A stretch of 64,000 bases of DNA from Minisyncoccia bacterium (GTDB lineage Bacteria > Patescibacteriota > Minisyncoccia > JACQLN01). Below are positions 9,780 through 61,927 of this stretch, piece after piece; the stretch's first letter is position 1; each line of letters begins with the position of its first letter. The notes below the pieces were generated by a model that was given only the letters and a program-made list of their open reading frames with translations, searched no databases and was not told the origin of the DNA. The stretch lies in assembly GCA_049274895.1 (NCBI GenBank), contig JBASTM010000005.1, forward strand, positions 9,636 through 73,635, written 5' to 3'. The position numbers and the translations under genes were made by a program.

Positions 9780-9834
9780 AACATCCTGACATCCTTAAGA
9801 ATGTTGGTATGTTATTCTGTTCTAGCTCACCTTC

Positions 9835-9878
9835 TTAATCCCCACACCGATTTCGTAGCCGGAATGATTCCAGGTTTT
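9835..9878. repeat. 44-bp direct repeat, copy 1 (ttaatccccacaccgatttcgtagccggaatgattccaggtttt). It duplicates the 3-prime end of ileS and is a putative att site.
   Basis: Identical base for base with 12359-12402. Confidence 0.9.
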
Positions 9879-12348: not shown

Positions 12349-15300
12349 CTAGACCTTTTTAATCCCCACACCGATTTCGTAGCCGGAATGATTCCAGGTT
12401 TTGTGGACCAGAAAATTGTCGTTCTCGGCAATACCAAAATGGATTTGACTGGAACGGGTTTCGGATTTGATAACCTGCTCCCAACGGGAAAGAAACTCTT
12501 GAAAGTTCTGGTTTTGGCGGATGTCGTAATACAAAATTATTTTATCTTCGGGCGTTAAGCCGGCCTCTTTGCGCATATCGTTGATGTTGCGCGTCAGTTC
12601 GCGCACCAAACCCTCTTCTTTCAGCTCGGCGGTGAGTTCGGTATCCAGAACCACTGTGTCTTTGGCTATTTTGCGGTCGGCCAGAACTTTTTTAACATTC
12701 AATTCCGAAGCCACCAAATACAAAACGTCCCCAATCAAATTGTAATCCGCAGGTGAAAGATATAAGGCGTTTAAGGGCTGGCGGACTCTGATGCCGGTTC
12801 TAGCCCGCTCGGCCAGGCCCAAAGCCACAAGTTCGCGGGCTTTATCCATCACCCGCATTATTTCCGATTTCTTAGCCGACTTTGACGCCTTGGGCCAACT
12901 CTCCAAATGAACAGATTCTAAGTTACAAGTTACAGGTTTTAAGTTCTTGAGATTTTGATAAAGCCATTCGGCCAAAAACGGCGTGAACGGTGAGAGTAAA
13001 ATCGAGACACGTCTTAAAACCTCCGCCAAGGTTCGTTGGGCGGCCAGTTTTTCTCCGTCCATATTTTGTTTTTGAAACTTGCGTCTGGACCTGCGGATAT
13101 ACCAATTGGAAAGTTCATCCACAAATTCCTCAATGTCCCGCGCGGCCGAAGTTACACTGTAAGCATCAAGATGCTTAGCCGCGTCTGATTCCAAATCTGC
13201 CAAGCGCTCCAAAATCCAGCTGTCTAAAATATCCGGCCGGGCGGCCAGCGAGGCCGGAGCGTCGTCATAATAAGTTTCCAAAAAGAGATAGGAGTTAACT
13301 AGAGTATCAACAAAGCGGCGTTTTTTGGTCTCAAGGTCGCGCAGATTAAAAAGTTTGTTGTCGCCGGGCGTGTTTACGGTATAAAAATACCAGCGCATCA
13401 CGTCAAAACCGACTTTCTCGCCTACCAGCCACGGATCCACCATGTTGCCTTTAGATTTAGACATCTTTTCACCCTTATCATCCAGAACATGGTTTAAGCT
13501 GATGACATTCTTAAAAGGCGCGCCTTGGCCCAAGGCGGTAGCTACAGCCACAAGCGTGTAAAACCAGCCGCGGGTTTGATCTATAGCTTCACAAATGTAA
13601 TCCGCCGGGAAAAGATTTTTGGAAGCCCAGGGCATCGCTCCCGAATCAAACCAGACATCTATAAGATCCTTGACGCGCTCCATCCTGGACGAACATTGGG
13701 GACACTTGAGAAAAACAGCATCCACATACGGCCGATGTAGATCAAGATTGCCTTCAGCATCGTAAGGCCAGTTGTTGATTTTGAACTCGGTAAATTCGGC
13801 CGTGTCCAAAACCAGTTTGGATTTTTTCACGGCCGATTGGTAAGCGAGTTCAGTTTCGTCAGAACCGTATATCCCGCCCGAAGTTTGGATCAAAAACAAA
13901 GGGTCCATATGGCTAACCACGATAATTTTTTTACCCGGATGCTTATGGGAAACATCGGCCGTAAAATCACGCACCCTGCGGGCCACGTCCAACCACGACT
14001 CCCCCTGCGGCGGTGAGTGCACAAATCTGTCTTTGAAAGAACTGAAATAGTTACGGTAGGCCTCAACCGCTTGTCCGCTAAACTGACCGGTGTCTATTTC
14101 GCGCAAGCGCGGATCAAAAATTATGTTTTTTGTTTTAAGCTCATCAGCCACAATCTGCGCCGTCTCCCGGGCGCGCAGCAGGTCCGATGAATACACCGCC
14201 GTTGCTTTCTCTTTACCCAGACCCAACTTAATTTTCTTGGCTGCCGCTTCAACCTGCTTGCGGCCGCGCTCGGTCAGCGGATTCAATTTCTGTTCGGGAT
14301 AAGAACTGCAAAAACCTTTAAGATTGGACTCGGCCTCGCCGTGGCGCATTAAAATCAAAGTGGCCGGCGCATCGGTGCGGTTTTTATTCAAATCGTCCAA
14401 CGATCCAGCCACCAACCGGTGATCACATTTCCGGCATTCCCAAACCGGCAAGGGCGTGCCCCAGTAACGCTCGCGGCTGACGGCCCAATCTTTTACCTCG
14501 CGCAGCCACTCACCAAACCGGCCTTCTTTTAAGTGTTCCGGCACCCAATTTATTTTCTGATTATTTTTAATAAGCTCACGCCTTAAAGCCGACATTTTTA
14601 TAAACCAGCTCTCCTTGGCGTAATAAATTAAGGGCGATTGGCAACGCCAACAGAAAGGGTATTCGTGGCTGTAATCGGCTTCGTTAAAAAGCAAATTCTG
14701 TTTTTTTAAGTAAAATAGAATCGCTTTTTCCGTTAGCATGTCTTTCCGGCCCTCGCTGACAACAGGCAAACCGGCCACGATGGGAACTGATTTTATAAAC
14801 ACACCTTCGCGATCCACGGTGTGAAACTTAGGCAAACCGTGCCGCGCACCCAATTCAAAATCATCCGCGCCGTACATTACCGCGGTGTGGACTAGGCCCG
14901 TGCCTTCTTGGGTGCTTACAAAATCGGCGGGATAGACCTTATAAGATTGTGGCGACACCAACTCTTTGATCTTAAAAAGTGGTTCATACGACAACTTAGC
15001 CACTTCACTGGCTTTTAGATCTTTGATAATTTTGTAATCGCGATTGCCAAAAACTTTAGCCGCCAAATCTTTGGCTAAAATATATTTCTCGCCGTCCGAT
15101 TCCACCTCTACATAGTTGATTTTGGAGCCGACGGCCAAAGCCACGTTGCCCGGCAAAGTCCAGGGCGTGGTCGTCCAGGCCAAAAGATAAGTATCGGCTA
15201 AGCCCTTGACTTTGAACTTTACGGTAACTGATTTGTCGGTGACGGTTTCGTAGCCCTGAGCCACTTCGTGGCTGGAAATGGGCGTGCCACAGCGCACGCA

Positions 15301-17039: not shown

Positions 17040-17397
17040 GGGGATGTAACGGCTTCGTCAAGAAGCGTATTGCTTTGGATTCGAGGTTGAGGTTGACCAC
17101 AAACTCATAAAACTGGTCGAAAACAATAAGTGCAAACTTATTTAACGCTAAACCAGCGTTTGCTGTAGCTTAAAAACTTCAGCCATCGTTCCGTCCCCGC
17201 CCGAAGGGATGGAAACGGTGCCAACTTTTCGGGCCGCTCTTTCAAACCAGGCGGGTTTGGAAGCTAAGACAATCGCCGAAAGTTCAACTTTTTTGGCCGT
17301 CCTTTAAGGGTTGGACTTAAAACAAGGGCGGTTAGACTTCGTAAAAATCCTGGCAAGAAACTTTTTGCACGCGGGTTCAACTCCCGCCATCTCCACC
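17040..17397 (+). ncRNA. ssrA: tmRNA (ssrA), with predicted tag peptide ANLFNAKPAFAVA
   Basis: The 5-prime end GGGGATG...GGATTCGAGG and the 3-prime tRNA-like end GCGGGTTCAACTCCCGCCATCTCCACC are complementary across an acceptor stem. There is an internal frame gca aac tta ttt aac gct aaa cca gcg ttt gct gta gct taa. The gene sits immediately downstream of smpB. Confidence 0.8.
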
Positions 17398-17496
17398 CCG
17401 TAAAGCAAAATATGCAGCATATTTTGCCACGGGGTAGGCACGTGATAAAATTTGAAAAATTTTTCAAATTTTATTTTACGTGCCACCTCGTAAAAC

Positions 17497-17766
17497 ATGC
17501 AATACGTATACATCCTGCATAGTCTTAAAGATATGGGACTGTATATAGGATACACTACTGACCTAAGAAAACGTTATCAACTTCACCAAGATGGCAAAGT
17601 GTTATCAACAAAACATCGACTGCCTGTAAAACTTATTTACTACGAATCTTACCTAAACAGAATTGATGCCAAAAAACGAGAAATATTTTTGAAGTCGGGA
17701 TCAGGGCATAGGTTTATCAAAAAGCAGTTATCAAATTATCTCAGAAATAATCCCCTTGCGCGTTAA
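17497..17766 (+). CDS. GIY-YIG nuclease domain protein (small, YhbQ/UPF0213-like)
   Basis: VYILHS...GLYIGYTTDLRKRYQLHQ is the GIY-YIG signature. Confidence 0.7.
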   Translation: MQYVYILHSLKDMGLYIGYTTDLRKRYQLHQDGKVLSTKHRLPVKLIYYESYLNRIDAKKREIFLKSGSGHRFIKKQLSNYLRNNPLAR

Positions 17767-30117: not shown

Positions 30118-30163
30118 TAGTTATCGCTAATATAGCGAATCAGCGCCAATATAGCAAATTATA

Positions 30164-30261
30164 GAAAGACACCGTTTTGAGCGACTTCGGGGAGGTTTAG
30201 TTAATTAAGATAGGGTGGGGCGAAGAGCTCCTCCCTGCAGGAGCGAAAAATGGTGTCTTTC
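30164..30261. other. ~100-nt structured element closed by a 10-bp inverted repeat gaaagacacc/ggtgtctttc, with internal hairpins
   Basis: Read directly from the sequence; intergenic. Confidence 0.4.
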
Positions 30262-30266
30262 TAAAA

Positions 30267-37118: not shown

Positions 37119-37946
37119 TTAGTATAGCACTTGGCAGCGGTGGCAAAAATGCGCCGTCCGCGAGCCGATTCTAACGGTTCTTACCTCGCCACTACAAACA
37201 CACCTCTCTCCTTTTCTGGCATAAACCAACCGCCGGGCAAAATAACCCCCTTTTTTACCGGCGAGGTCGCGGTAATCGCGGCGGGTAGTACCTCTCAATT
37301 TTAACGATTTTTTGAGCACCCCGACCAATTTGTTAAAAAGGAGTTTGAGTTTTTGGGGCGGTATTTTTTCCGTTCGGCTTAAGGGATGGATTTTGGCTAA
37401 ATACAGGGCTTCGTCGGAATAGATATTGCCCACACCGGCCAAAAATTCCTGATTCATTAAGGCAGATTTGATCCGGCCGCGCCTGGCACTAATTCGAGTT
37501 AAAAATTCTTTGACTGTGGTCTTCAATGGGTCGGGACCTAATTTTTTAATCTCCGGCCGAGCCATCACTTCTTCGCTCGGGCCAGCAATTACGCGGCCGA
37601 ATTTTCTAACGTCGGAAAAATATAACTTGGCTTTTTTATTTCCTTTTTTTAAGTCAAAAATCAAATGAATATAACCGAGGTTGGCTGGCGGGTCAAGTAA
37701 AAAGTGGCCCGTCATTTTAAGATGCGCCGCAAGAACATAACCGCCGGAAAGATTGAAAATTATATTCTTGCCTCGGCGTTCAATACTGATTATCCTGCGC
37801 CCGGCCATAGCGCGTTTGACCTTGTCCAACCCCCCGCTCGCGGCAAGATACTTCGGCCAATCGCTCCAAACGCCTATAATTACCCAACCGATCAGGCGGT
37901 GTTTGAGATCGTTAGCGATGGTTTCAACTTCGGGCAGTTCAGGCAT
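37119..37946 (-). CDS. mutM: Formamidopyrimidine-DNA glycosylase
   Basis: MPELPEVE N-terminus (catalytic Pro2/Glu3), H2TH, and a C-terminal zinc finger CxxC...CHRCQ. Confidence 0.85.
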   Translation of the reverse strand: MPELPEVETIANDLKHRLIGWVIIGVWSDWPKYLAASGGLDKVKRAMAGRRIISIERRGKNIIFNLSGGYVLAAHLKMTGHFLLDPPANLGYIHLIFDLKKGNKKAKLYFSDVRKFGRVIAGPSEEVMARPEIKKLGPDPLKTTVKEFLTRISARRGRIKSALMNQEFLAGVGNIYSDEALYLAKIHPLSRTEKIPPQKLKLLFNKLVGVLKKSLKLRGTTRRDYRDLAGKKGGYFARRLVYARKGERCVCSGEVRTVRIGSRTAHFCHRCQVLY

Positions 37947-37984
37947 GCCAATTTTATTTACGAATGAAATGAGTAATTACTAAA

Positions 37985-38053
37985 ATTGAGCACCCAGCAC
38001 CTTTTAGATGTATAAATAATCTTTACCTTCAAAAGGTGCTGGGTAAGGTTTGG
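37985..38053. repeat. Palindromic intergenic element, copy A (attgagca-CCCAGCACCTTTT-25 nt loop-AAAAGGTGCTGGG-taaggttt), upstream of fpg
   Basis: 13-bp perfect inverted repeat with conserved flanks; the loop is inverted relative to copy B. Confidence 0.8.
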
Positions 38054-38065
38054 CAACCAATCGCG

Positions 38066-40282
38066 CTACGCGCTCTTGGGCCAAGCCCTTAAATCTCCCC
38101 AATTCGGCCCAATTTCAACTTCCGCCACTATCGGTACGGCCAGTTGAACCACGTTTTCCATAATCTCTTTAATAATCGGCGCGTATTTTTTAACGGCATC
38201 AGATTCAACCTCAAAAACCAGCTCGTCGTGCACCTGGAGAATCATTTTAATATCCTTTTTGGAGCCGATCTTTTTATCCAGTTCCACCATAGCCGCTTTA
38301 ACGATGTCGCCGGTGGCCGTGCCTTGAATGGGCATATTCACAGCCTCGCGTTCGGCCGCGGCCCTGAAACCGGGGTTGGGCGAATTCAAATCAACATAGC
38401 GTTTGCGGCCCCACAACGTTTCCACGTAACCCTGAGCTCGGGCTTTGTTTTTTATGTCTTTGATAAACTTGGCGAGACCAGAAAAATCGGTTTCGTACTC
38501 GCGGATAAACTCCTGGGCCTCGCTTAAACTTAATCCGGAAGATTGGGCGAACGCCCGCGCGCCCATGCCGTATAAAACGCCGAAGTTCAAAGTTTTGGCT
38601 TCGCGGCGCATTTCTTTGGTCACTTTATCGGCCGCGACGTTAAAAATTTCGGCGGCGGTGCGGGTATGGATATCTTCGCCCTTTTTGAACGTCTCAATCA
38701 TTTTTTCGTCGCCCGACAAGGCCGCGGCCACTCTAAGTTCAATCTGGGAATAATCAGCCGTCAGTATCAGCCAGCCCTCGGGCGCCGTAAAAGCCCGCCT
38801 GATGGCCAAACCGTATTCGCCTTTGGTGGGAATGTTTTGTAAGTTGGGGTTTTCCGAAGCCAAGCGCCCCGTCACCGCGCCCAGCTGTTTGAAAGTGGTG
38901 TGCAAGCGGCCGTCTTTAAGATTGACCAGCCGGGGCAGGGCCTCCACGTAAGTGGACTGGAGCTTGGACAGTTCCCGCCAGCGCAGCAATAAGGTAAAAA
39001 TCGGGTGCGTATCTTTTAATTTTTCCAACTCCTCGGCGCCCGTGGCATAGGCGCCGGTTTTGGTTTTTTTGATTCTGGGGCCGCCCAGGTTAAGTTTTTC
39101 AAAAATAATCCGGCCCAGTTCCTGAGTGGAGTTTAAGTTGAAATCCTCACCTGCGATCCGAGTCACCTCTTTTTTAATTTGGGAGAGCTCATCGGCTATC
39201 TTTCGACTTAAATTTTTCAATATCTTAACGTCCAGTAAAATCCCAGCACGCTCCATCTGGCGCAAAACCGGCCGGACATCTTTTTCCAGTTTATAAATTT
39301 TTTCCGAAAAAATGCCTCTTTTGTAATACTCCTCGAGTTCGTCTCCAATAAGTTGCGCCTGCTCCGGAGCCGCGTTCGACATAGTGCCACCCTGATTTTT
39401 AAGATCATTCAGGCGGCTGACTAAACTCCTGAATCCAAATCTAAAAAACAGCTTTTTAATTTCTTCGTCATTGCCCAAATCAAAACTCGCCTCTGTGATA
39501 TCAAAATCAACCGGCACATCTCTTTTAATAATCGCCAATTTCTTGCTTAAAAAGGCCTGATCTTTGTTAGCCGATATTTTTTCAAACAGCTTTGAGCTTT
39601 TAGCTTTTAGCCGGGATAAATTCTCATACAGATTTTCCAAACTGCCGTACTCTTTCAAAAGGATAATGGCCGTTTTTTCGCCCACACCCGGCACGCCGGG
39701 AATGTTGTCGGAAGGATCGCCTTTCAAACCCTTAAAATCGGCCATCTGCTTGGGGCCCAGGCCCTCAAATCTTTCTCGAACGGCCGCTTGGTCGTAGATT
39801 ACCGTATCGCTCACGCCTTTTTTTAGGGTATAGACTTTGACATTGTCGTCGTCTATCAACTGCAAACTGTCCAGATCGCCGGTAACGATAATTTTCTCCA
39901 AATCTTTCCGGCTTTTTAATTTTTCCACCACCGTGCCGATAATGTCATCGGCTTCGTAGCCCTGATGCTCCAAGACCGGAATGTTAAAAGCGGTCACCAA
40001 TTCTCTGACCAGAGGAAACTGATTTATCAGAGCATCATCGGTGACCGGCCGCTGGGCTTTGTAATCGCCAAACTCCTTATGCCTAAAAGTCGGCCCGGCC
40101 ATGTCAAAAGCGGCCACGATATATTCCGGCTTTAATTCTTTTATAACCCTCATAAGAACGCTGGCAAAACCGTAAACCGCCTGCACGGCTTGCCCGTCGG
40201 GCGCAGTCAAAACCGGCAGGGCGTGGTAAGCGCGGTGGATTAAAGCGTGAGAATCAATTATTACAATTTTTTCTTTTTTCAT
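38066..40282 (-). CDS. polA: DNA polymerase I (5-prime-3-prime exonuclease plus polymerase domains; no obvious proofreading domain)
   Basis: 5-prime nuclease N-terminus and Pol A motifs (RRAAKTLNFGVLYG; HDELVFE). Confidence 0.9.
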   Translation of the reverse strand: MKKEKIVIIDSHALIHRAYHALPVLTAPDGQAVQAVYGFASVLMRVIKELKPEYIVAAFDMAGPTFRHKEFGDYKAQRPVTDDALINQFPLVRELVTAFNIPVLEHQGYEADDIIGTVVEKLKSRKDLEKIIVTGDLDSLQLIDDDNVKVYTLKKGVSDTVIYDQAAVRERFEGLGPKQMADFKGLKGDPSDNIPGVPGVGEKTAIILLKEYGSLENLYENLSRLKAKSSKLFEKISANKDQAFLSKKLAIIKRDVPVDFDITEASFDLGNDEEIKKLFFRFGFRSLVSRLNDLKNQGGTMSNAAPEQAQLIGDELEEYYKRGIFSEKIYKLEKDVRPVLRQMERAGILLDVKILKNLSRKIADELSQIKKEVTRIAGEDFNLNSTQELGRIIFEKLNLGGPRIKKTKTGAYATGAEELEKLKDTHPIFTLLLRWRELSKLQSTYVEALPRLVNLKDGRLHTTFKQLGAVTGRLASENPNLQNIPTKGEYGLAIRRAFTAPEGWLILTADYSQIELRVAAALSGDEKMIETFKKGEDIHTRTAAEIFNVAADKVTKEMRREAKTLNFGVLYGMGARAFAQSSGLSLSEAQEFIREYETDFSGLAKFIKDIKNKARAQGYVETLWGRKRYVDLNSPNPGFRAAAEREAVNMPIQGTATGDIVKAAMVELDKKIGSKKDIKMILQVHDELVFEVESDAVKKYAPIIKEIMENVVQLAVPIVAEVEIGPNWGDLRAWPKSA

Positions 40283-51225: not shown

Positions 51226-51237
51226 GTTTTATTTATC

Positions 51238-51285
51238 CAACATCTTTTTAGTGTAAAGATATTTATACTTTGAAAAGGTGCTGGA
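51238..51285. repeat. Palindromic intergenic element, copy C (degenerate left arm; the loop has the same orientation as copy B)
   Basis: ...gtaaagatatttatactttgAAAAGGTGCTGGA... Confidence 0.6.
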
Positions 51286-54486: not shown

Positions 54487-55032
54487 CTATTCTGTATTGG
54501 TATACACCTCCATCACATCTTCTTGATCATCTAAATCTGAAAGTAGGGCGGAGAGTTTGGATTCAGCTTCATCATTTAATTTTATGGTTTGCTTAGGCAA
54601 CCACTTTATTTCCCCATTTTCGTATTTATGTTCAAAAAGCCATTTGACGCTGCCAGAACCCGACAAACTAGCCCCATTCATGGCTAAAACATGTTTTAAC
54701 TCGGCCACAGTTCTGTTTTTATTGGCGGTGACAACAGTTATTAAGAGTGCCGCCCCGCCGGGCCCATAGGCCTCATAGACTACTTCTTCTATAGTCTCAC
54801 CCGCCAACTGACCACTGCCTTTCTTGATGGCCCGCTCTATGTTTTCCGAGGGCATATTCTCGGCCTTGGCCTGATCCACTGCCGCCTTAAGCGAGAGATT
54901 GGTTTTGGTATCGGACCCCTTCTTGGCCGCGAGCTCAATAATTTTAGACAACTTAGAAAACAACTGACCTTTTTTAGCATCGGTTAGGCCTTTTTTTCTT
55001 TTAATTTTAGCCCACTTGCTGTGACCGGACAT
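54487..55032 (-). CDS. YebC/PmpR family probable transcriptional regulator
   Basis: MSGHSKWAKIKRKKG is the invariant N-terminus. The track ORF has a spurious 22-aa extension. Confidence 0.85.
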   Translation of the reverse strand: MSGHSKWAKIKRKKGLTDAKKGQLFSKLSKIIELAAKKGSDTKTNLSLKAAVDQAKAENMPSENIERAIKKGSGQLAGETIEEVVYEAYGPGGAALLITVVTANKNRTVAELKHVLAMNGASLSGSGSVKWLFEHKYENGEIKWLPKQTIKLNDEAESKLSALLSDLDDQEDVMEVYTNTE

Positions 55033-55072
55033 GCCAATTATGTTGAAATTTATAAGCGTAGTGAAATAAATT

Positions 55073-55140
55073 TCACTACAGAATTGAGCATCCAGCACCT
55101 TTTCAAGGTAAAGATTATTTATACATCTAAAAGGTGCTGG
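55073..55140. repeat. Palindromic intergenic element, copy B, upstream of the yebC-like gene
   Basis: attgagcaTCCAGCACCTTTT-caaggtaaagattatttatacatct-AAAAGGTGCTGGAtaaggtttt. Confidence 0.8.
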
Positions 55141-55182
55141 ATAAGGTTTTGTTGCCGCTCGCTCCGCTCGCGGACAAAGCCC

Positions 55183-56298
55183 TTAAGCCCTTATCGGCAT
55201 CACCAAATACAAAAAATCTTTATCTTCCGGAGATTTAATTAAGCAGGGTTTGGTCTCGTCAATAAAGTTAAAAACCACCGTGCGGCCCAAAAGACCGGCC
55301 ACACCATCCACCAAATACCTCCAATTAAATTTAACTTCCAAATCCTCTCCGGAAACATCAGCCGGAAGTTCAGCGTCATTTTCACCCAAATCGCTGTCGG
55401 CCGCATACATTGTCAACTTAGATTCTTTGCCTTTTCTAAAAGATAATTTTATGTCGCTGACCCTACTGGAAAGCAAACTAACCAGCTTTACGGTTCTCAC
55501 AAAATCTTCCCTCACCAAACTGGCCGTCAAATTAAACTCTTGGGGTATCAACTTTCTATAATCAGGATACTGGCCCTCTATCAACCTGGAAACAACTTCC
55601 ACTTTGCCCAACTCAAAGCCAATTTGATTTTTTTCCACCACAATCAAAAGATCTCCTGCCATATTGGAAAATATCCTAATCACTTCGGCACAGGTCCGGG
55701 CCGGAATGATTATAGAAAATTTGGCCTCTAAATAGCGGTTGTCAAGTAAAATAATTTTTTCTCCCAATCTAAAGCTGTCGGTGGCCGCCAGCCGTAAAAA
55801 GTTCTCGCCCTGCTCTTTAGAAATAAACACACCGGTTATTTCCGGCCGGGTTTCGGAATTAGAGACAAATCCGGCGATTTGATTCAAAGATTTAGTGAAT
55901 AGTTTGGTTGGTACGCCAAAACCATTTTCCTTTTTTAGAGAAGGTATGATGGGAAAATCATCGGCACTCTCGCCTTTAAGTGAAGCTCGGTAATTACCCG
56001 AGGTAATGCTTAGTGTTTTATCCTTCTTGAGTTCCAAAATAACTTTATCGCTCACCAGAGAAGAAACTATACCACTGAAAATTCTGGCCGGCACAGTGAT
56101 CTCGCCGCTTTTTTCCACTTTGCAAGGCAACCAAGAGGTGATGCCTATTTCCAAATTAGTGGAGGATATTTTTAATCCATTCCTTTCCGTTTTTATTAAA
56201 AAATTATTGAGTATAGGCAAAGTCAGGTGTCTGGTGACAATTTTATCGGCGTAGTCCAAAAACTCCTTTAGTTTTTCCGTATTACATAATACTTCCAT
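55183..56298 (-). CDS. dnaN: DNA polymerase III beta subunit (sliding clamp)
   Basis: Three-domain clamp architecture, the N-terminus, and a position adjacent to dnaA. Confidence 0.85.
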   Translation of the reverse strand: MEVLCNTEKLKEFLDYADKIVTRHLTLPILNNFLIKTERNGLKISSTNLEIGITSWLPCKVEKSGEITVPARIFSGIVSSLVSDKVILELKKDKTLSITSGNYRASLKGESADDFPIIPSLKKENGFGVPTKLFTKSLNQIAGFVSNSETRPEITGVFISKEQGENFLRLAATDSFRLGEKIILLDNRYLEAKFSIIIPARTCAEVIRIFSNMAGDLLIVVEKNQIGFELGKVEVVSRLIEGQYPDYRKLIPQEFNLTASLVREDFVRTVKLVSLLSSRVSDIKLSFRKGKESKLTMYAADSDLGENDAELPADVSGEDLEVKFNWRYLVDGVAGLLGRTVVFNFIDETKPCLIKSPEDKDFLYLVMPIRA

Positions 56299-56525
56299 TT
56301 TTATTTATTTAAATTTTATTAAGATTACTAAGCGACTTTATTATGTTGATAACTGGTTTTAGACCTGTGTTTTATTCAATTATTTTTTTAAATTTTTGTG
56401 GAAAACAGTCGGGATAACGCTTTGAGTTTATGGTGGCAGTTTTACAATAAAATTATTTAATGGAATATATTTTTTAATTGCCAACACTTAATCAACATAG
56501 CTATCAACAACTTATCCATTATATA
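56299..56525. promoter_or_regulatory. AT-rich dnaA-dnaN intergenic region with several DnaA-box-like 9-mers (tgttgataa, tgtggaaaa, gggataac, ttatccatt); a candidate oriC component
   Basis: Near-consensus TTATCCACA/TGTGGATAA matches and a very low GC content. Confidence 0.5.
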
Positions 56526-57908
56526 TTAAGCTTCGTATATTCTATTTCTTATAATATTTAACTCCTCTATTAAATTTTCATTGTTTTGAACTTCCTTGCC
56601 TATTTTTTCGCAAGCGTGCATCACGGTGGTGTGGTCCCGGCCGCCAAATTTATCTCCAATAAAAGGATAGGAGTTTTTTAATTCCTCGCGCATCAAATAC
56701 ATGCAGATTTGGCGAGGCAGCACGATTTCTCTTTTTCTAGACTGGTTTATTAAATCTTCTTCTTTAATATCGTAAAATTCGGATACCACTTTAATTATAA
56801 TCTTGGGCGTTGTTTTGGAATTGTTGGTTTGGTGGGTGGTGGCCAGTATTGCTTTCACCCGCTCTAGGGTGGTGGGTGTGTTGGCCACCCGGCAAGACAT
56901 AACCACCCGGTTTAAAGCCCCTTCTAACTCGCGAATGTTTTTGGTTATATTGTTGGCAATGAAACTAAGAATATCGTCGCTTAATTCGCCTAGGTTTTTT
57001 TCTATCAACTTGGCTTTAAGTATAGCCACCCGGGTTTCGTAATCCGGCGGAGTGATGTCGGCAATCATACCCCCTTCAAACCGGCTGCGCAGCCGTTCTT
57101 CCAAAGTGGTGATGGCTTTGGGCGGGCGGTCTGAAGACAAGACAATTTGGTTGTTGTTAGCGTAAAGCTCATTAAAAATATGGAAAAACTCTTCCTGTGT
57201 TTTTTCCTTGCCGGCTATAAACTGGATATCATCCACTATTAACAGGTTGAATTTTTTATACTCCTCCTTGAATTTATCTATAGTTTTGTTGCGTATGGAG
57301 TTTATTAGGTCTCCCAAAAACTTTTCCGAAGGCACATACCTCACTTTGTTTTTAGGATTATTTTTTATAATCTCATTACCTATGGCCTGCAAAAGGTGTG
57401 TTTTACCCAAACCCACCCCGCCGTAAATAAACAAAGGGTTGTAGGTGGAGCCGGTGTTTTTAGCCACAGCTACGGCGGCGGCATGAGCCAGTTGGTTGCC
57501 AGAACCGATAATAAAAGAGTCAAAGGTGTATCTGGAATTGAGGTTGGTTTCCCTATCCGGCATTACTGTTTCGGTCAGATTAAGTTGGTGATCGGCCAAA
57601 ATCGGAACCATAACCTCTCTCTTTTTTTGGCTGGGGTGTATTTTCCTGTCCTCACTAACTAGTTGAGTTTTTATAGTGAAACGTATCTCCTTAACATCAT
57701 TGGAAAGTTTCCTTAAAGTCTTTAGGATGATCAGGTTATATTTGTCTTCCAACCAGCCCTTTATAAACAAGCTGGGTGTAGAAACCAAAACCATGCCGTC
57801 TTTTTTGGAGACGATGGCAGTATTGCTGAACCAAGTGATAAAATTGGGCTTGGAAATGGATAGCTCAATTTCCGCCAGAGCGGTTTGCCAAAGCTCGTCT
57901 TTGTCCAT
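56526..57908 (-). CDS. dnaA: Chromosomal replication initiator protein DnaA
   Basis: Walker A GGVGLGKTHLL, a AAA+ sensor region and the C-terminal DNA-binding domain; the start is at the internal Met (MDKDELWQ). Confidence 0.9.
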   Translation of the reverse strand: MDKDELWQTALAEIELSISKPNFITWFSNTAIVSKKDGMVLVSTPSLFIKGWLEDKYNLIILKTLRKLSNDVKEIRFTIKTQLVSEDRKIHPSQKKREVMVPILADHQLNLTETVMPDRETNLNSRYTFDSFIIGSGNQLAHAAAVAVAKNTGSTYNPLFIYGGVGLGKTHLLQAIGNEIIKNNPKNKVRYVPSEKFLGDLINSIRNKTIDKFKEEYKKFNLLIVDDIQFIAGKEKTQEEFFHIFNELYANNNQIVLSSDRPPKAITTLEERLRSRFEGGMIADITPPDYETRVAILKAKLIEKNLGELSDDILSFIANNITKNIRELEGALNRVVMSCRVANTPTTLERVKAILATTHQTNNSKTTPKIIIKVVSEFYDIKEEDLINQSRKREIVLPRQICMYLMREELKNSYPFIGDKFGGRDHTTVMHACEKIGKEVQNNENLIEELNIIRNRIYEA

Positions 57909-58193
57909 TTTTTGTTTTTCTTGGTATATGTTAACTTTTGGGCCCGAGAGGAAGTGAAAGCAAACCAAAACATTGGCGGCGGCGGTGAGAAGAACTTTCA
58001 ATTCGCTGCCAATTATATCACAGTGGTACCAATAGCAAATTTAACCAAAATTATATCAAAAGTGGATAACCTGTTGAAGAGGTGTGTAATACAATTTGCT
58101 TTATCTTTCAAATCATTACCTGTAAGCATACTTCTCTTCTAAATTGTCTAATTTTTAATTAAATAATAAATGTGATAATATAGTCCGAACATT
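57909..58193. promoter_or_regulatory. AT-rich region between divergent dnaA and rpmH, with a DnaA box (agtggataa) and promoters; a candidate oriC/incC part
   Basis: One near-consensus box and an AT-rich unwinding-like stretch. Confidence 0.4.
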
Positions 58194-58337
58194 ATGAAAA
58201 TAACCAAATATCGCCCCAAAAACAAAAAAAGAGCCAGAACTCACGGCTTCCTTAATAGGATGTCGGACGCCGCCGGCAGGAATACCCTAAAAAGAAGAAG
58301 ATTAAAAGGCAGGTATAGCTTATCCGTTTCCGTTTAA
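58194..58337 (+). CDS. rpmH: 50S ribosomal protein L34
   Basis: My own translation gives [47 protein letters not shown], a classic L34. It is immediately upstream of rnpA. Confidence 0.8.
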
Positions 58338-58340
58338 GTT

Positions 58341-58625
58341 GTGTTGGGTATGAAATTCACCAGCGAGCTGTTTGATGTATATATTTCTCCGGCCAGGACC
58401 CCAACCGATCGTCGGGTTGACGTGGTGGTTGGCGTTAGGGTGTCAAAAAAGGCAGTCGTCCGGAATCGTTTAAGAAGACAGTTAAAGGAAATTTTAAGAT
58501 TATACCTCCAGACTGGTAATTCCTCCGGGTATTATTTGAGGGTGGCCGCCAAACCACCTTTAATCAATCAGAAATTCAGTCAGATTAAAAAGCAAATTGA
58601 GGCTGTCTTGGATAAAATCAAATGA
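58341..58625 (+). CDS. rnpA: Ribonuclease P protein component
   Basis: Basic RNR motif region (VRNRLRRQLKE) and its position after rpmH. Confidence 0.8.
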   Translation: MLGMKFTSELFDVYISPARTPTDRRVDVVVGVRVSKKAVVRNRLRRQLKEILRLYLQTGNSSGYYLRVAAKPPLINQKFSQIKKQIEAVLDKIK

Positions 58626-58852
58626 GGCGCCTACTCATCATTTTCGTAAAAAGCTATCAAAAATTATTGTCGCCGCAGACCGGTGTTTTTAGGTTTATCT
58701 ATCTCTGGCCGGTATTGTCGCTTAATCCCACCGTCTGGGCCGGTTGCCGCCATTATCCATCCTGCTCGCAGTATTGCATCCAAGCCATTTCCAAACATGG
58801 AGTCTGGCAAGGTCTTGTGCTGACAGTTAAAAGAGTAATTGGTTGTAGATAA
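58622..58852 (+). CDS. yidD: Membrane protein insertion efficiency factor YidD
   Basis: CRHYPSCSQYCIQAISKHG motif. Confidence 0.8.
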   Translation: MRRLLIIFVKSYQKLLSPQTGVFRFIYLWPVLSLNPTVWAGCRHYPSCSQYCIQAISKHGVWQGLVLTVKRVIGCR

Positions 58853-58854
58853 AA

Positions 58855-59574
58855 ATGCTTGCCTTGTTTCACGAATTACTGTATCGCCCCCTATTTAATC
58901 TTTTGGTGGCTTTTTACAATTTTATTCCCGGCTCCGATGTGGGCCTGGCTATTATAGCCACGACTTTGATCATCAAACTAATTTTTTGGCCGATGACCCA
59001 AAAAGCCATAAAATCGCAAAAAGCCCTGCAGGATCTCCAACCTAAAATAAAAGAGCTTCAGGAAAAATATAAAACCAATAAAGAAGAACAAGCCAAACAA
59101 CTGATGCTTTTTTATAAAGAAAATAAAATAAATCCTCTCTCTGGTTGCCTGCCTCTTTTGGTGCAATTGCCCATTTTAATAGCTTTGTATCAGGTTTTTT
59201 TGAAGGGTTTTGATCCGGCCAACCTTTCGGTTTTGTATAATTTTGTAAGCAATCCCGGAGTTATTGATCCTGATTTTTTGGGTTTAATGGATTTATCCCA
59301 TTCCAATAAAGCCCTCGCGGTTTTGGCCGGAGCCACCCAATTTTGGCAGGCCAAAATGATTTCTCCCAAAAAGAAATTGCCCGGAGCGCCCAAAACCTCC
59401 GACGAGTTTATGGCCCAGGCCATGTCTAAGCAGATGCTCTATTTTTTGCCTGTACTGACGGTGGTAATTTCCTGGACTTTGCCGGCCGGCTTGGCTCTTT
59501 ATTGGGTGGTAACCACTCTGTTTACCATAGTCCAGCAGTATGTTATTATGCGTTCCGCACCAACTACCGAATAA
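58855..59574 (+). CDS. yidC: Membrane protein insertase YidC (short Gram-positive-type)
   Basis: Five TM helices with conserved PLLVQLPILIALY and the C-terminal region. Confidence 0.85.
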   Translation: MLALFHELLYRPLFNLLVAFYNFIPGSDVGLAIIATTLIIKLIFWPMTQKAIKSQKALQDLQPKIKELQEKYKTNKEEQAKQLMLFYKENKINPLSGCLPLLVQLPILIALYQVFLKGFDPANLSVLYNFVSNPGVIDPDFLGLMDLSHSNKALAVLAGATQFWQAKMISPKKKLPGAPKTSDEFMAQAMSKQMLYFLPVLTVVISWTLPAGLALYWVVTTLFTIVQQYVIMRSAPTTE

Positions 59575-61171: not shown

Positions 61172-61927
61172 TTATTCAGTTGACGGTGTCAAGACGCATG
61201 TATTGTTTTGGCACGTACCCACAAAACATCCGGTATCACTGGCTCCAGTAGGAGCGCAAGCCCCTCCTGTCGGCCGTCTGAGTGTACAAACACCTTGCTG
61301 TCCGGGAACACCTGGGGTTAGATATTCTCCAGTCGTTGGATTTAGACAACGTTCCTCGTCTCCGGCACAAGGATTATCTGTAGTGCAAGCCGATTTTTCC
61401 GTGTCTGCTACAGCTACACAGGCTCTGTTTTGGCATTTCAGTCCTGCTTTGCAGTCATAATTACCGCTACATTGGTTACCGATGTTGCCATCGCCATGTC
61501 CTATTTGTCCAAAAAGTTTTCTATAAAAATCATAATCACTCGTTACGGGAAAATTCACGCTCGGATTTCTGATTTGGACCAATTGGGGGTTGATAGTGTA
61601 GAGAAAAATATAAGAGCCAAGAAGGATTATCAGGCCTAAAACCGCGCCCGTGATGCGTTCTTTGGCGACCTTGACCTGACCTTCGTTGCCCCGCGCCGTC
61701 ATCCATTCCACACCGCTCCGCACCAGAGCGTAAATTATAGCCAGGCCCACCAAGGCCTGGCTCATTAAAAATATATATCTTATCCATTGCGCCGGACCCA
61801 TAGAGTCGGTTACTTTCACTCCCTGAACCGAGGGGAAATCAACTTCCAAAGCTAAAACCGCGGTCGGTAAAGTTAGTAACAGAATGGTTGCAGTTATTAT
61901 ATAAGACTTATAGGACAAATAGGACAT
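61172..61927 (-). CDS. VirB2/TrbC-like pilin-topology protein with a long Cys-rich C-terminal extension
   Basis: Signal sequence, then two hydrophobic helices separated by a short loop, then 14 Cys in the last 90 aa. Confidence 0.35.
   Translation of the reverse strand: MSYLSYKSYIITATILLLTLPTAVLALEVDFPSVQGVKVTDSMGPAQWIRYIFLMSQALVGLAIIYALVRSGVEWMTARGNEGQVKVAKERITGAVLGLIILLGSYIFLYTINPQLVQIRNPSVNFPVTSDYDFYRKLFGQIGHGDGNIGNQCSGNYDCKAGLKCQNRACVAVADTEKSACTTDNPCAGDEERCLNPTTGEYLTPGVPGQQGVCTLRRPTGGACAPTGASDTGCFVGTCQNNTCVLTPSTE

Follow-up and report, generated by a model that had tools for sequence, protein, structure and literature searches.

The window analysed here, i.e., the whole stretch of 64,000 nucleotides from a Minisyncoccia bacterium, contains three copies of a palindromic hairpin, referred to as A, B, and C, whose coordinates are reported in Table 1. 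Two of them occupy spacers between genes of the minus strand, in the orders polA-[A]-fpg-holA and dnaA-dnaN-[B]-yebC-ruvC; the third adjoins the ATG of a 53-aa ORF, so that the location of all three upstream of minus-strand genes, as stated in the original prediction, is correct. The same prediction had ascribed common flanks and arms to the three copies. This is the case for A and B, but not for C, which has one good arm (51273-51284) and a degenerate one (CCAACATCTTTT, 51237-48, with two mismatches) and lacks both flanks. Moreover, copy B, placed at 55073-55140, is actually located at 55083-55149, about 10 nt further on.

The repeat search of the window revealed that the 49-nt cores of A and B (37994-38042 and 55092-55140) are 98% reverse-complementary and that their flanks are a direct repeat; hence, the predicted flip of the loop between fixed flanks does exist. 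The two loops, described as exactly reverse-complemented, are inverted and agree at 24 of their 25 positions (the reverse complement of loop A begins with g, loop B with c). The exact 12-mer of the arm occurs five times in the window, always at sites A, B, and C, and the folding of the hairpins of A and B gave z-scores of -5.6 to -6.0 in respect to shuffled sequence; therefore, the match between A and B is not due to chance. The word aattggcATG, reported at both downstream gene starts, is found in the window in its exact form only there. Likewise, the exact AATTGGCATG and the contiguous TAAGGGCTT are confined to A and B, which indicates that these words are part of the element rather than a general gene-start context. 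Profile searches recovered A and B as the only full modules of the window and C as a solo relic.

Table 1. Coordinates of the features in the window, and loci of other contigs where a GIY-YIG gene lies within the arms
Feature	Position (strand)	Description
Hairpin copy A	37985-38051	attgagca-CCCAGCACCTTTT-25 nt-AAAAGGTGCTGGG-taaggttt
Module A, complete	37944-38091 (-)	from TAAGGGCTTG, which overlaps the 3' end of polA, as far as AATTGGC-ATG (start codon of fpg at 37944-37946); nhmmer E 1e-14 to 6e-21
Hairpin I of A, variant ii	38044-38091 (-)	base TAAGG...CCTTA; inner stem CCAA-GA-GCGC/GCGC-GA-TTGG
Hairpin II of A, arm 1	37993-38005	CCCAGCACCTTTT on the + strand
Spacer of A	38006-38030	25 nt, AT-rich quasi-palindrome, orientation R; in gene direction GAAGGTAAAGATTATTTATACATCT
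Hairpin II of A, arm 2	38031-38043	AAAAGGTGCTGGG on the + strand
Hairpin III of A	37946-37992 (-)	TGCTCAATTTTA...TAAAATTGGCA; base pairing ends at the A of the fpg ATG
Hairpin copy B	55083-55149	flanks as in A, same orientation; outermost arm pair T..A, not C..G
Module B, complete	55030-55193 (-)	dnaN stop to AATTGGC-ATG; yebC start 55030-55032
Hairpin I of B, variant i	55142-55185 (-)	tip GTCCGCGAGCGGAGCGAGCGGCAAC
Hairpin II of B	55091-55141	arms TCCAGCACCTTTT (55091-55103) and AAAAGGTGCTGGA (55129-55141)
Spacer of B	55104-55128	orientation F; in gene direction AGATGTATAAATAATCTTTACCTTG
Hairpin III of B, variant 2	55032-55090 (-)	inner stem GTAGTGAAAT..ATTTCACTAC
Copy C, decayed solo hairpin II	51237-51284 (-)	spacer orientation F; profile E 3e-10; fold z = -3.0
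GIY-YIG in arms, trxB-like to gap		L044, L060-65
GIY-YIG in arms, DUF8128 to TrwB		L066, MAG JAUYOU01: one full copy and six short copies
GIY-YIG in arms, pheS to pheT		L067
GIY-YIG in arms, UDG to fusA		L068-77; arms diverged with compensation (CCTTGTTTGT/ACAAACAAGG)

The hairpin with the flipped loop does not stand alone, being the middle one (hairpin II) of three hairpins in a module of 150-165 bp. The layout of this module, obtained from the copies of public genomes and metagenomes, all turned to gene direction, is the following: stop codon, TAAGGGCTTTG, hairpin I, AAAACCTTA, arm beginning with CC(C/T), spacer, arm, TGCTCAAT, hairpin III, AAAATTGGC, ATG. The module takes up the whole spacer, from the stop codon of the upstream gene (TAAGGGCTT) to the AATTGGC-ATG of the downstream one. 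TAAGG pairs with CCTTA and TGC(T)CAAT with ATTGGCA, and all the modules fold into three adjacent hairpins. In module A, the polA stop TAG (38066-38068) falls within hairpin I; in module B, the dnaN stop TAA (55183-55185) is accompanied by a duplicated TAAGGGCTT-AAGGGCTTT. Copy C contains neither hairpin I nor hairpin III.

The comparison of 25 distinct modules disclosed two-sided compensatory changes in stem III (G:C<->T:A at position 5 and G:C<->A:T at position 8), and the outermost arm pair alternates between C..G and T..A. Hairpins I and III exist in at least two to three variants each, which are freely combined, even at one orthologous locus. In about 25 copies, the module ends exactly at a stop codon and a start codon and is always co-oriented with the flanking genes, which are themselves unrelated from copy to copy. 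These copies are harbored by the window, the MAGs JAUYOU01, CAYHXG01, and JAJYNK01, and groundwater contigs, i.e., by ultra-small bacteria of a Patescibacteria lineage (Minisyncoccia/Paceibacteria-like). Since the loci were collected through searches with the arms, the sample is biased towards arm-bearing modules. The metagenome contigs often end at or inside the module (L010, L019, L044, L050, L052, L058, and L059), as is to be expected of assemblies at a multi-copy repeat.

Some other matches of the arm pattern were set aside. Those retrieved from Dorea, Ruminococcus, Lachnospiraceae, and Akkermansia were treated as unrelated, their flanks and contexts being different, and a stem (CAGCACCTTTT..AAAAGGTGCTG) in an apparent 5'-proximal (V1-like) helix of a Peribacteraceae 16S rRNA gene (L036, 1588-1632) was considered a coincidence. 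The search for arm plus flank in viral contigs gave no match. The possibility that the element might be a LexA/SOS box, suggested by the neighboring repair genes, was discarded, as other copies precede rplN, gap, fusA, pheT, and more.

The module is present or absent at orthologous spacers. Concerning the polA-fpg spacer, its length is 27-31 nt in relatives whose Fpg proteins are 79% and 76% identical, and it contains no element there; in addition, PolA ends with ..GPNWGELKKI* in the relatives and with ..GPNWGD-LRAWPKSA* in the window, where it reads into hairpin I, and the predicted C-terminus of the window polA product is rewritten by the element. In one contig (L043, 981-1436, MAG JACQLN01), an antitoxin gene and a YafQ-like toxin gene are embedded between polA and fpg, which makes this spacer a recurrent insertion site. 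In another one (L038, 437-1090, 81% Fpg identity), which does not include polA, a 217-aa Y1_Tnp gene (IS200/IS605- or RAYT-like) flanked by TGTGCAACATCTGATGTTGCACA hairpins immediately precedes fpg. At this hot spot, it represents a second nuclease element that is associated with hairpins, different from the module. A Y1 transposase was rejected as the partner enzyme of the module, given that the hairpins of L038 are different and that tblastn with its Y1_Tnp was empty in the window and in the module loci.

At the dnaN-yebC spacer, the window harbors a module with a loop in the F orientation, and L046 has the same arms and the F loop, with variants of hairpins I and III that differ from those of the window. 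Six contigs from different samples (L078-83, 78% YebC identity) retain hairpins I and III; in these contigs, the slot between the AAACCTTA and TGCTC flanks is filled by another inverted repeat, 17 bp long (CCCCGCTCATATTTTGC / GCAAAATATGAGCGGGG), and by a cargo of about 115 nt. No module is present in relatives with 73-74% YebC identity. The ~115-nt cargo is GC-rich and structured, with an extra CCTGCCTGCCGGCAGGCAGG hairpin (L079, ~486-633), and its tip depends on the sample (L082 differs). As for the short native spacers of the module-less relatives, they contain ATAGGTC(C/T)TAT-like words (L039 1474-1500, L040 1470-1500, and L084 667-700); TAGGAC words are found in the window in a 34-nt inverted-repeat pair (61496-61529 / 61894-61927), and words of the TAGGTC/TAGGAC type may represent another lineage-specific intergenic signal.

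Two further observations concern the surroundings of module B. The cumulative GC skew flattens at its minimum where dnaA-dnaN lies, with yidC on the other side (~56000-58900 of the window); hence, the replication origin is probably located near 58 kb and module B adjoins the origin region. Besides, the C-terminal codons of dnaN, ATAAGGGCTTAA (..IRA*), are a duplicate of the module's 5' end (window 55176-55193), on the basis of which this end may be derived from the 3' end of dnaN and the dnaN-yebC spacer might be the birthplace of the module. In a module-less relative (L089, ~578-589), the place of these codons is taken by ATAAGGACTTAG.

Other repeats of the window can be mentioned here. A 50-nt direct repeat is present at 9829-9878 and 12353-12402, with the copies 98% identical and 2.5 kb apart. 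A long imperfect palindrome (30159-30266; arms of 37 nt, 78% complementary, spacer of 34 nt) fills the spacer orthologous to a module-bearing spacer of L012; its arms and hairpin II have the words CACC(N)TTTT..AAAA(N)GGTG in common, and it may be a diverged relative of the latter.

The orientation of the spacer was then compared among the copies. Relative to the fixed flanks, seven of the short AT-rich spacers are in orientation F, eight in orientation R, and one is ambiguous, and both orientations are found within each of the window genome, JAUYOU01, CAYHXG01, and JAJYNK01. Even lineage-specific spacer variants occur in both orientations inside one genome: the 25-nt form is R in A and F in B, and an unrelated 28-nt form (DBS2) of JAJYNK01 appears both ways in a 4:1 ratio. 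Among the ~85-nt cargoes, that of L054 is inverted in respect to those of L048, L049, and L056, so that three short cargo classes are seen both ways round. The originally proposed inversion of DNA between the 13-bp repeats holds to the extent that both spacer orientations are found against fixed asymmetric flanks, a situation repeated in four genomes and for three spacer classes unrelated to one another; accordingly, the arms do undergo some event that is blind to orientation. The behavior of the lineage-specific variants also implies that flipping, or orientation-blind copying, is recurrent and, in several lineages, recent. An assembly artefact was discarded, as the k-mers typically used in assembly exceed the 13 bp of the arms and independent samples repeatedly yield the same states. 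The two orientations are found at different loci only, no single locus being observed in both states; the six sample-independent L078-type contigs and the six contigs of the gap locus exhibit one state each, as consensus assemblies, which hide minority forms. No further contigs of the species of the window emerged from an exact look-up of its Fpg protein.

According to the original prediction, such an inversion would constitute a miniature invertible promoter switch. In a regulated switch of this kind, a recombinase would flip the 25-bp segment and turn its TATAAAT towards or away from the gene, giving an ON/OFF phase variation. The perfect 13-bp inverted repeats surrounding an asymmetric, AT-rich segment with this hexamer, as well as the nearly 50:50 ratio of the orientations across copies, are in favor of such a switch. 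The hexamer is indeed present, and it faces yebC in B, while in A it points away from fpg and into polA, antisense to it. However, the sigma-70 scan of A and B found no promoter using it and no -35 partner; the sole promoter-like match facing a downstream gene is a weak one in hairpin III of B. No tyrosine or serine recombinase was found among the scanned neighbors in the window (polA, fpg, holA, tsaE, T2SSE ATPase, ruvB, PBP1, tyrS, ruvC, yebC, dnaN, dnaA, and yidC), and known recombinase-driven invertible segments are far larger than 25 bp. Furthermore, the loop is dispensable and interchangeable, since it can be replaced by 3 nt, ~85 nt, or a gene, the putative targets are housekeeping genes (fpg, yebC, rplN, gap, and fusA), the element is missing in relatives, and the consensus contigs available from several samples for two loci revealed no mixed orientation. 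On the whole, a regulated promoter switch is very improbable.

A different possibility is that the module is a cis-acting spacer cassette of the host, serving as an RNA stabilizer or processing site, as an insulator, or in a non-Shine-Dalgarno or leaderless start; the GIY-YIG gene described below would be a secondary invader of the loop of hairpin II, and the flip would be neutral. Such a function would account for the co-direction of module and genes and for its extension from stop codon to ATG exactly (about 25 copies), as well as for the maintenance of the stems through compensatory changes. It would also agree with a -10-like word (TAAAAT/CATAAT) 4 nt before the ATG, with the weak promoter-like site in hairpin III of B, and with the genes of these genomes having no obvious SD sequences. 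On the other hand, close relatives dispense with the module at the same spacers, their genes being 27-34 nt apart, and the hairpin variants are shuffled among copies, even at one orthologous locus. The scan for intrinsic terminators at A and B returned no terminator-like site, the T-run being inside the stem. No relevant match was obtained with the Rfam 15 covariance models (window at the gathering threshold; hairpin, cargo loci, and L079 by E-value): in the window only tmRNA and tRNA reached the gathering threshold, and the hairpin gave weak matches to miRNA precursors and to the S-element, far below it. Finally, the mean difference between sense and antisense folding is +1.4 kcal/mol, with the sense strand favored in 3 of 11 modules; since both strands fold equally well and no G.U signal is seen, nothing is specific to RNA. 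A host cassette is, therefore, an unlikely explanation, albeit one to be kept in mind.

The content enclosed by the 13-bp arms is very different in the different copies. The shortest one is 3 nt long (L045); the short contents are AT-rich quasi-palindromes of 21-29 nt, and a class of about 85 nt (L048, L049, L054, and L056) contains two covarying hairpins. The latter consist of GAAGCCGCC-loop-GGCTC, followed by GATTGG/CCAATT or CAGATT/AATCTG, without any match in Rfam. In L044, a complete 84-aa GIY-YIG ORF is embedded between the arms, with the ATG 1 nt past the left arm and the stop codon abutting the right one. A 129-nt gene remnant lies between the arms in L053, at the pheS locus, and corresponds to a deletion, in situ, between two HYVY-coding direct repeats of the intact gene. 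Homologues were searched for with the L044 protein and the corresponding DNA was looked up, which yielded seven GIY-YIG homologues (identity 59-100%) at four distinct loci, plus one truncated remnant, all of them located within arms plus hairpins I and III (Table 1). The most divergent of these homologues has longer arms, changed on both sides (CCCAGCACCTTGTTTGT / ACAAACAAGGTGCTGGG).

The arm-bracketed proteins have conserved GIY, YIG, R, and E positions, which are the catalytic ones. PF01541 is the sole family for most of the 84-aa ORFs, PF10544/PF13455 being also assigned to P0161-P0168 and others; the nearest solved structures are the single-domain UPF0213 proteins 1zg2 (E = 1e-4) and 1ywl, and the only NCBIfam match of the 84-aa protein, below threshold, is to a group I intron endonuclease model. 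The window contains no arm-bracketed GIY-YIG gene; it has a free-standing one of its own (17497-17766), which codes for 89 aa, is 39% identical, and lacks the arms. Between the tmRNA gene (17040-17398) and this gene, which overlaps the infC start, a near-perfect palindrome of 48 nt (GGCACGTGATAAAATTTGAAAAA|TTTTTCAAATTTTATTTTACGTGCC, 17438-17485) is present in single copy in the window. As regards the short loops, the word ATGTAT is all they have in common with the GIY-YIG ORF, and this overlap is too unconvincing to claim them as remnants of its deletion.

Another possibility is an independent mini-transposon, that is, a MITE bounded by terminal inverted repeats, autonomous in its GIY-YIG version, which would enter the slot AAACCTTA|TGCTCAAT either way; in this case, the two states would correspond to the orientation of insertion. 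Constant arms around cargoes of very different sizes, the covariation of the outermost arm pair, and the presence, in the same slot of the orthologous dnaN-yebC spacer, of two unrelated inverted-repeat families both starting with CCC(A/C)GC are consistent with this idea. Nevertheless, a target-site duplication is lacking (AAACCTTA and TGCTCAAT do not form a direct repeat), the 470 kb of loci searched yielded no empty slot in which hairpin III would follow immediately after hairpin I, and the GIY-YIG cargo is always in gene direction, i.e., in one orientation only, at the four loci and in the truncated remnant. It is also worth considering that GIY-YIG nucleases are not known to act as transposases. 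A mini-transposon of this kind is thus quite improbable.

The closest known system is represented by Ssn, a 94-aa single-domain GIY-YIG nuclease of ssDNA, whose gene has hairpin repeats (NTS/SRM) on either side; these repeats are present between genes in hundreds of copies, and their orientation is given by non-palindromic flanks (Chenal et al. 2025, Nat Commun, PMC11893778). The authors of that work noticed the resemblance of these repeats to IS elements and REP/RAYT; Patescibacteria are absent from its main text. The system described here has in common with Ssn a small single-domain GIY-YIG protein (84 aa), a gene embedded in hairpin repeats, further copies of which are scattered over intergenic regions, and a palindromic core oriented by conserved non-palindromic flanks, the repeats being rarely located inside genes. 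Unlike Ssn, whose gene lies between two complete hairpins, the gene is placed here between the two arms of a single hairpin; moreover, the module consists of three hairpins, spans 150-165 bp from stop to start, and its middle hairpin has a stem of 13 bp and a long variable loop.

Other similarities can be recognized. As in REP/BIME-RAYT and IS200/IS605, the elements are short extragenic palindromes in many copies, clustered in composite mosaics; as in REP/BIME-RAYT, the nuclease gene is flanked by its own repeats, and the recognition of a folded hairpin in ssDNA is proposed, although the enzyme is a GIY-YIG rather than a Y1 transposase. The REP-like hairpin, put forward in the original prediction as the alternative to a switch, came nearer to the mark, except that this hairpin makes up a third of a larger unit and that, at other loci, its arms enclose a nuclease gene. 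The module resembles Correia/NEMIS and other bacterial MITEs, elements with terminal inverted repeats and an influence on the transcripts next to them, in size (~150 bp), intergenic location, sub-type mosaics, and assembly breaks; it differs from them in that it has no target-site duplication, its inverted repeats are internal (in the middle hairpin), and its ends coincide with a stop and a start codon. As in fimS, hin, and the Bacteroides invertons, inverted repeats enclose a segment that precedes genes and is seen either way round, but the segment is 25 bp long instead of at least ~150-300 bp, with no promoter consensus, no recombinase nearby, and an interchangeable content.

As to the flip itself, template switching between inverted repeats is a well-established source of mutations that inverts spacers and homogenizes arms (PMC8604942, PMC8794818), and small inversions associated with hairpins are well known in plastomes (minute inversions). 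There too, a spacer between perfect short repeats is flipped with its surroundings fixed (PMC8604942, PMC8794818, PMC6824564); such flips recur, are homoplasious, and seem to be neutral, and the process that causes them also homogenizes the arms. The difference is that in the present case a multi-copy bacterial repeat family is involved, with spacers of 21 to ~85 nt, and that a dedicated nuclease may stimulate the process.

The anatomy of the module, its multi-copy dispersal, its presence or absence at orthologous spacers, the association of the gene with the arms, and the existence of three cargo classes both ways round are established. The explanation that we favor, with a confidence somewhat above even, is that A and B represent copies, devoid of the ORF, of a palindromic module associated with a GIY-YIG nuclease and analogous to Ssn/NTS, in which events blind to orientation, acting at the perfect inverted repeats, have scrambled the spacer. 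In such a module, the three back-to-back hairpins take the place of the whole stop-to-start spacer, and the 13-bp arms of hairpin II delimit a cassette slot, which contains the 84-aa GIY-YIG gene in full copies and decay products or a short filler in the others. By analogy with Ssn/NTS, the nuclease might recognize the folded hairpin and the oriented flanks in single-stranded DNA, and nicking and repair would drive copying, replacement, and flipping. The events at the arms may consist in a switch of template during replication of the extruded hairpin, in recombination of one arm with the other through their short homology, or in conversion from another copy; as the arms are perfect inverted repeats, events confined to them would be blind to orientation and would leave the spacer either way round relative to the asymmetric flanks. 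The flip of the loop, therefore, appears to be a side effect of the inverted repeats being perfect, and not a promoter switch.

Some data run counter to the favored explanation. The published SRM consensus, HGTCWYN(0-2)YYVSBRHN(0-5)WNVSBRGN(0-2)RNCYNB, has no match in the window (0.36 on average in shuffled sequences) nor in four GIY-YIG-bearing modules, and the window itself is devoid of an arm-bracketed GIY-YIG gene. No locus is seen in both orientations, the L078-type and gap contigs being uniform, as consensus assemblies. Lastly, a random selfish insertion does not predict ends lying exactly at stop and start codons and strict co-orientation in about 25 copies; this hints at a host-level function or at strong selection and keeps the host-cassette alternative alive. 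A more ambitious proposal, somewhat unlikely as it stands and advanced only tentatively, is that of an undescribed selfish or domesticated system of Patescibacteria, in which an Ssn-like nuclease, encoded in the hairpin loop, would cut the extruded ssDNA hairpin, repair would copy, swap, or flip the content of the arms, and the cassette would spread over housekeeping operons. The outcome would be a natural orientation-blind cassette slot.

Whatever the enzyme, the module represents a clean natural case, in bacteria, of spacers that are repeatedly flipped where the inverted repeats around them are perfect, and explains the contig breaks in the MAG assemblies of its host organisms; it also advises caution, as a flipped segment bounded by inverted repeats is not always a phase-variation switch. 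If the link with the nuclease holds, the partnership between a small GIY-YIG nuclease and dispersed hairpins, described only in 2025, would extend to the Candidate Phyla Radiation. It would do so with a new architecture, in which the gene is nested in the loop of a hairpin and a triple-hairpin module replaces the spacers of streamlined genomes, and it would provide a new candidate pair of a site-specific ssDNA nuclease and its target.
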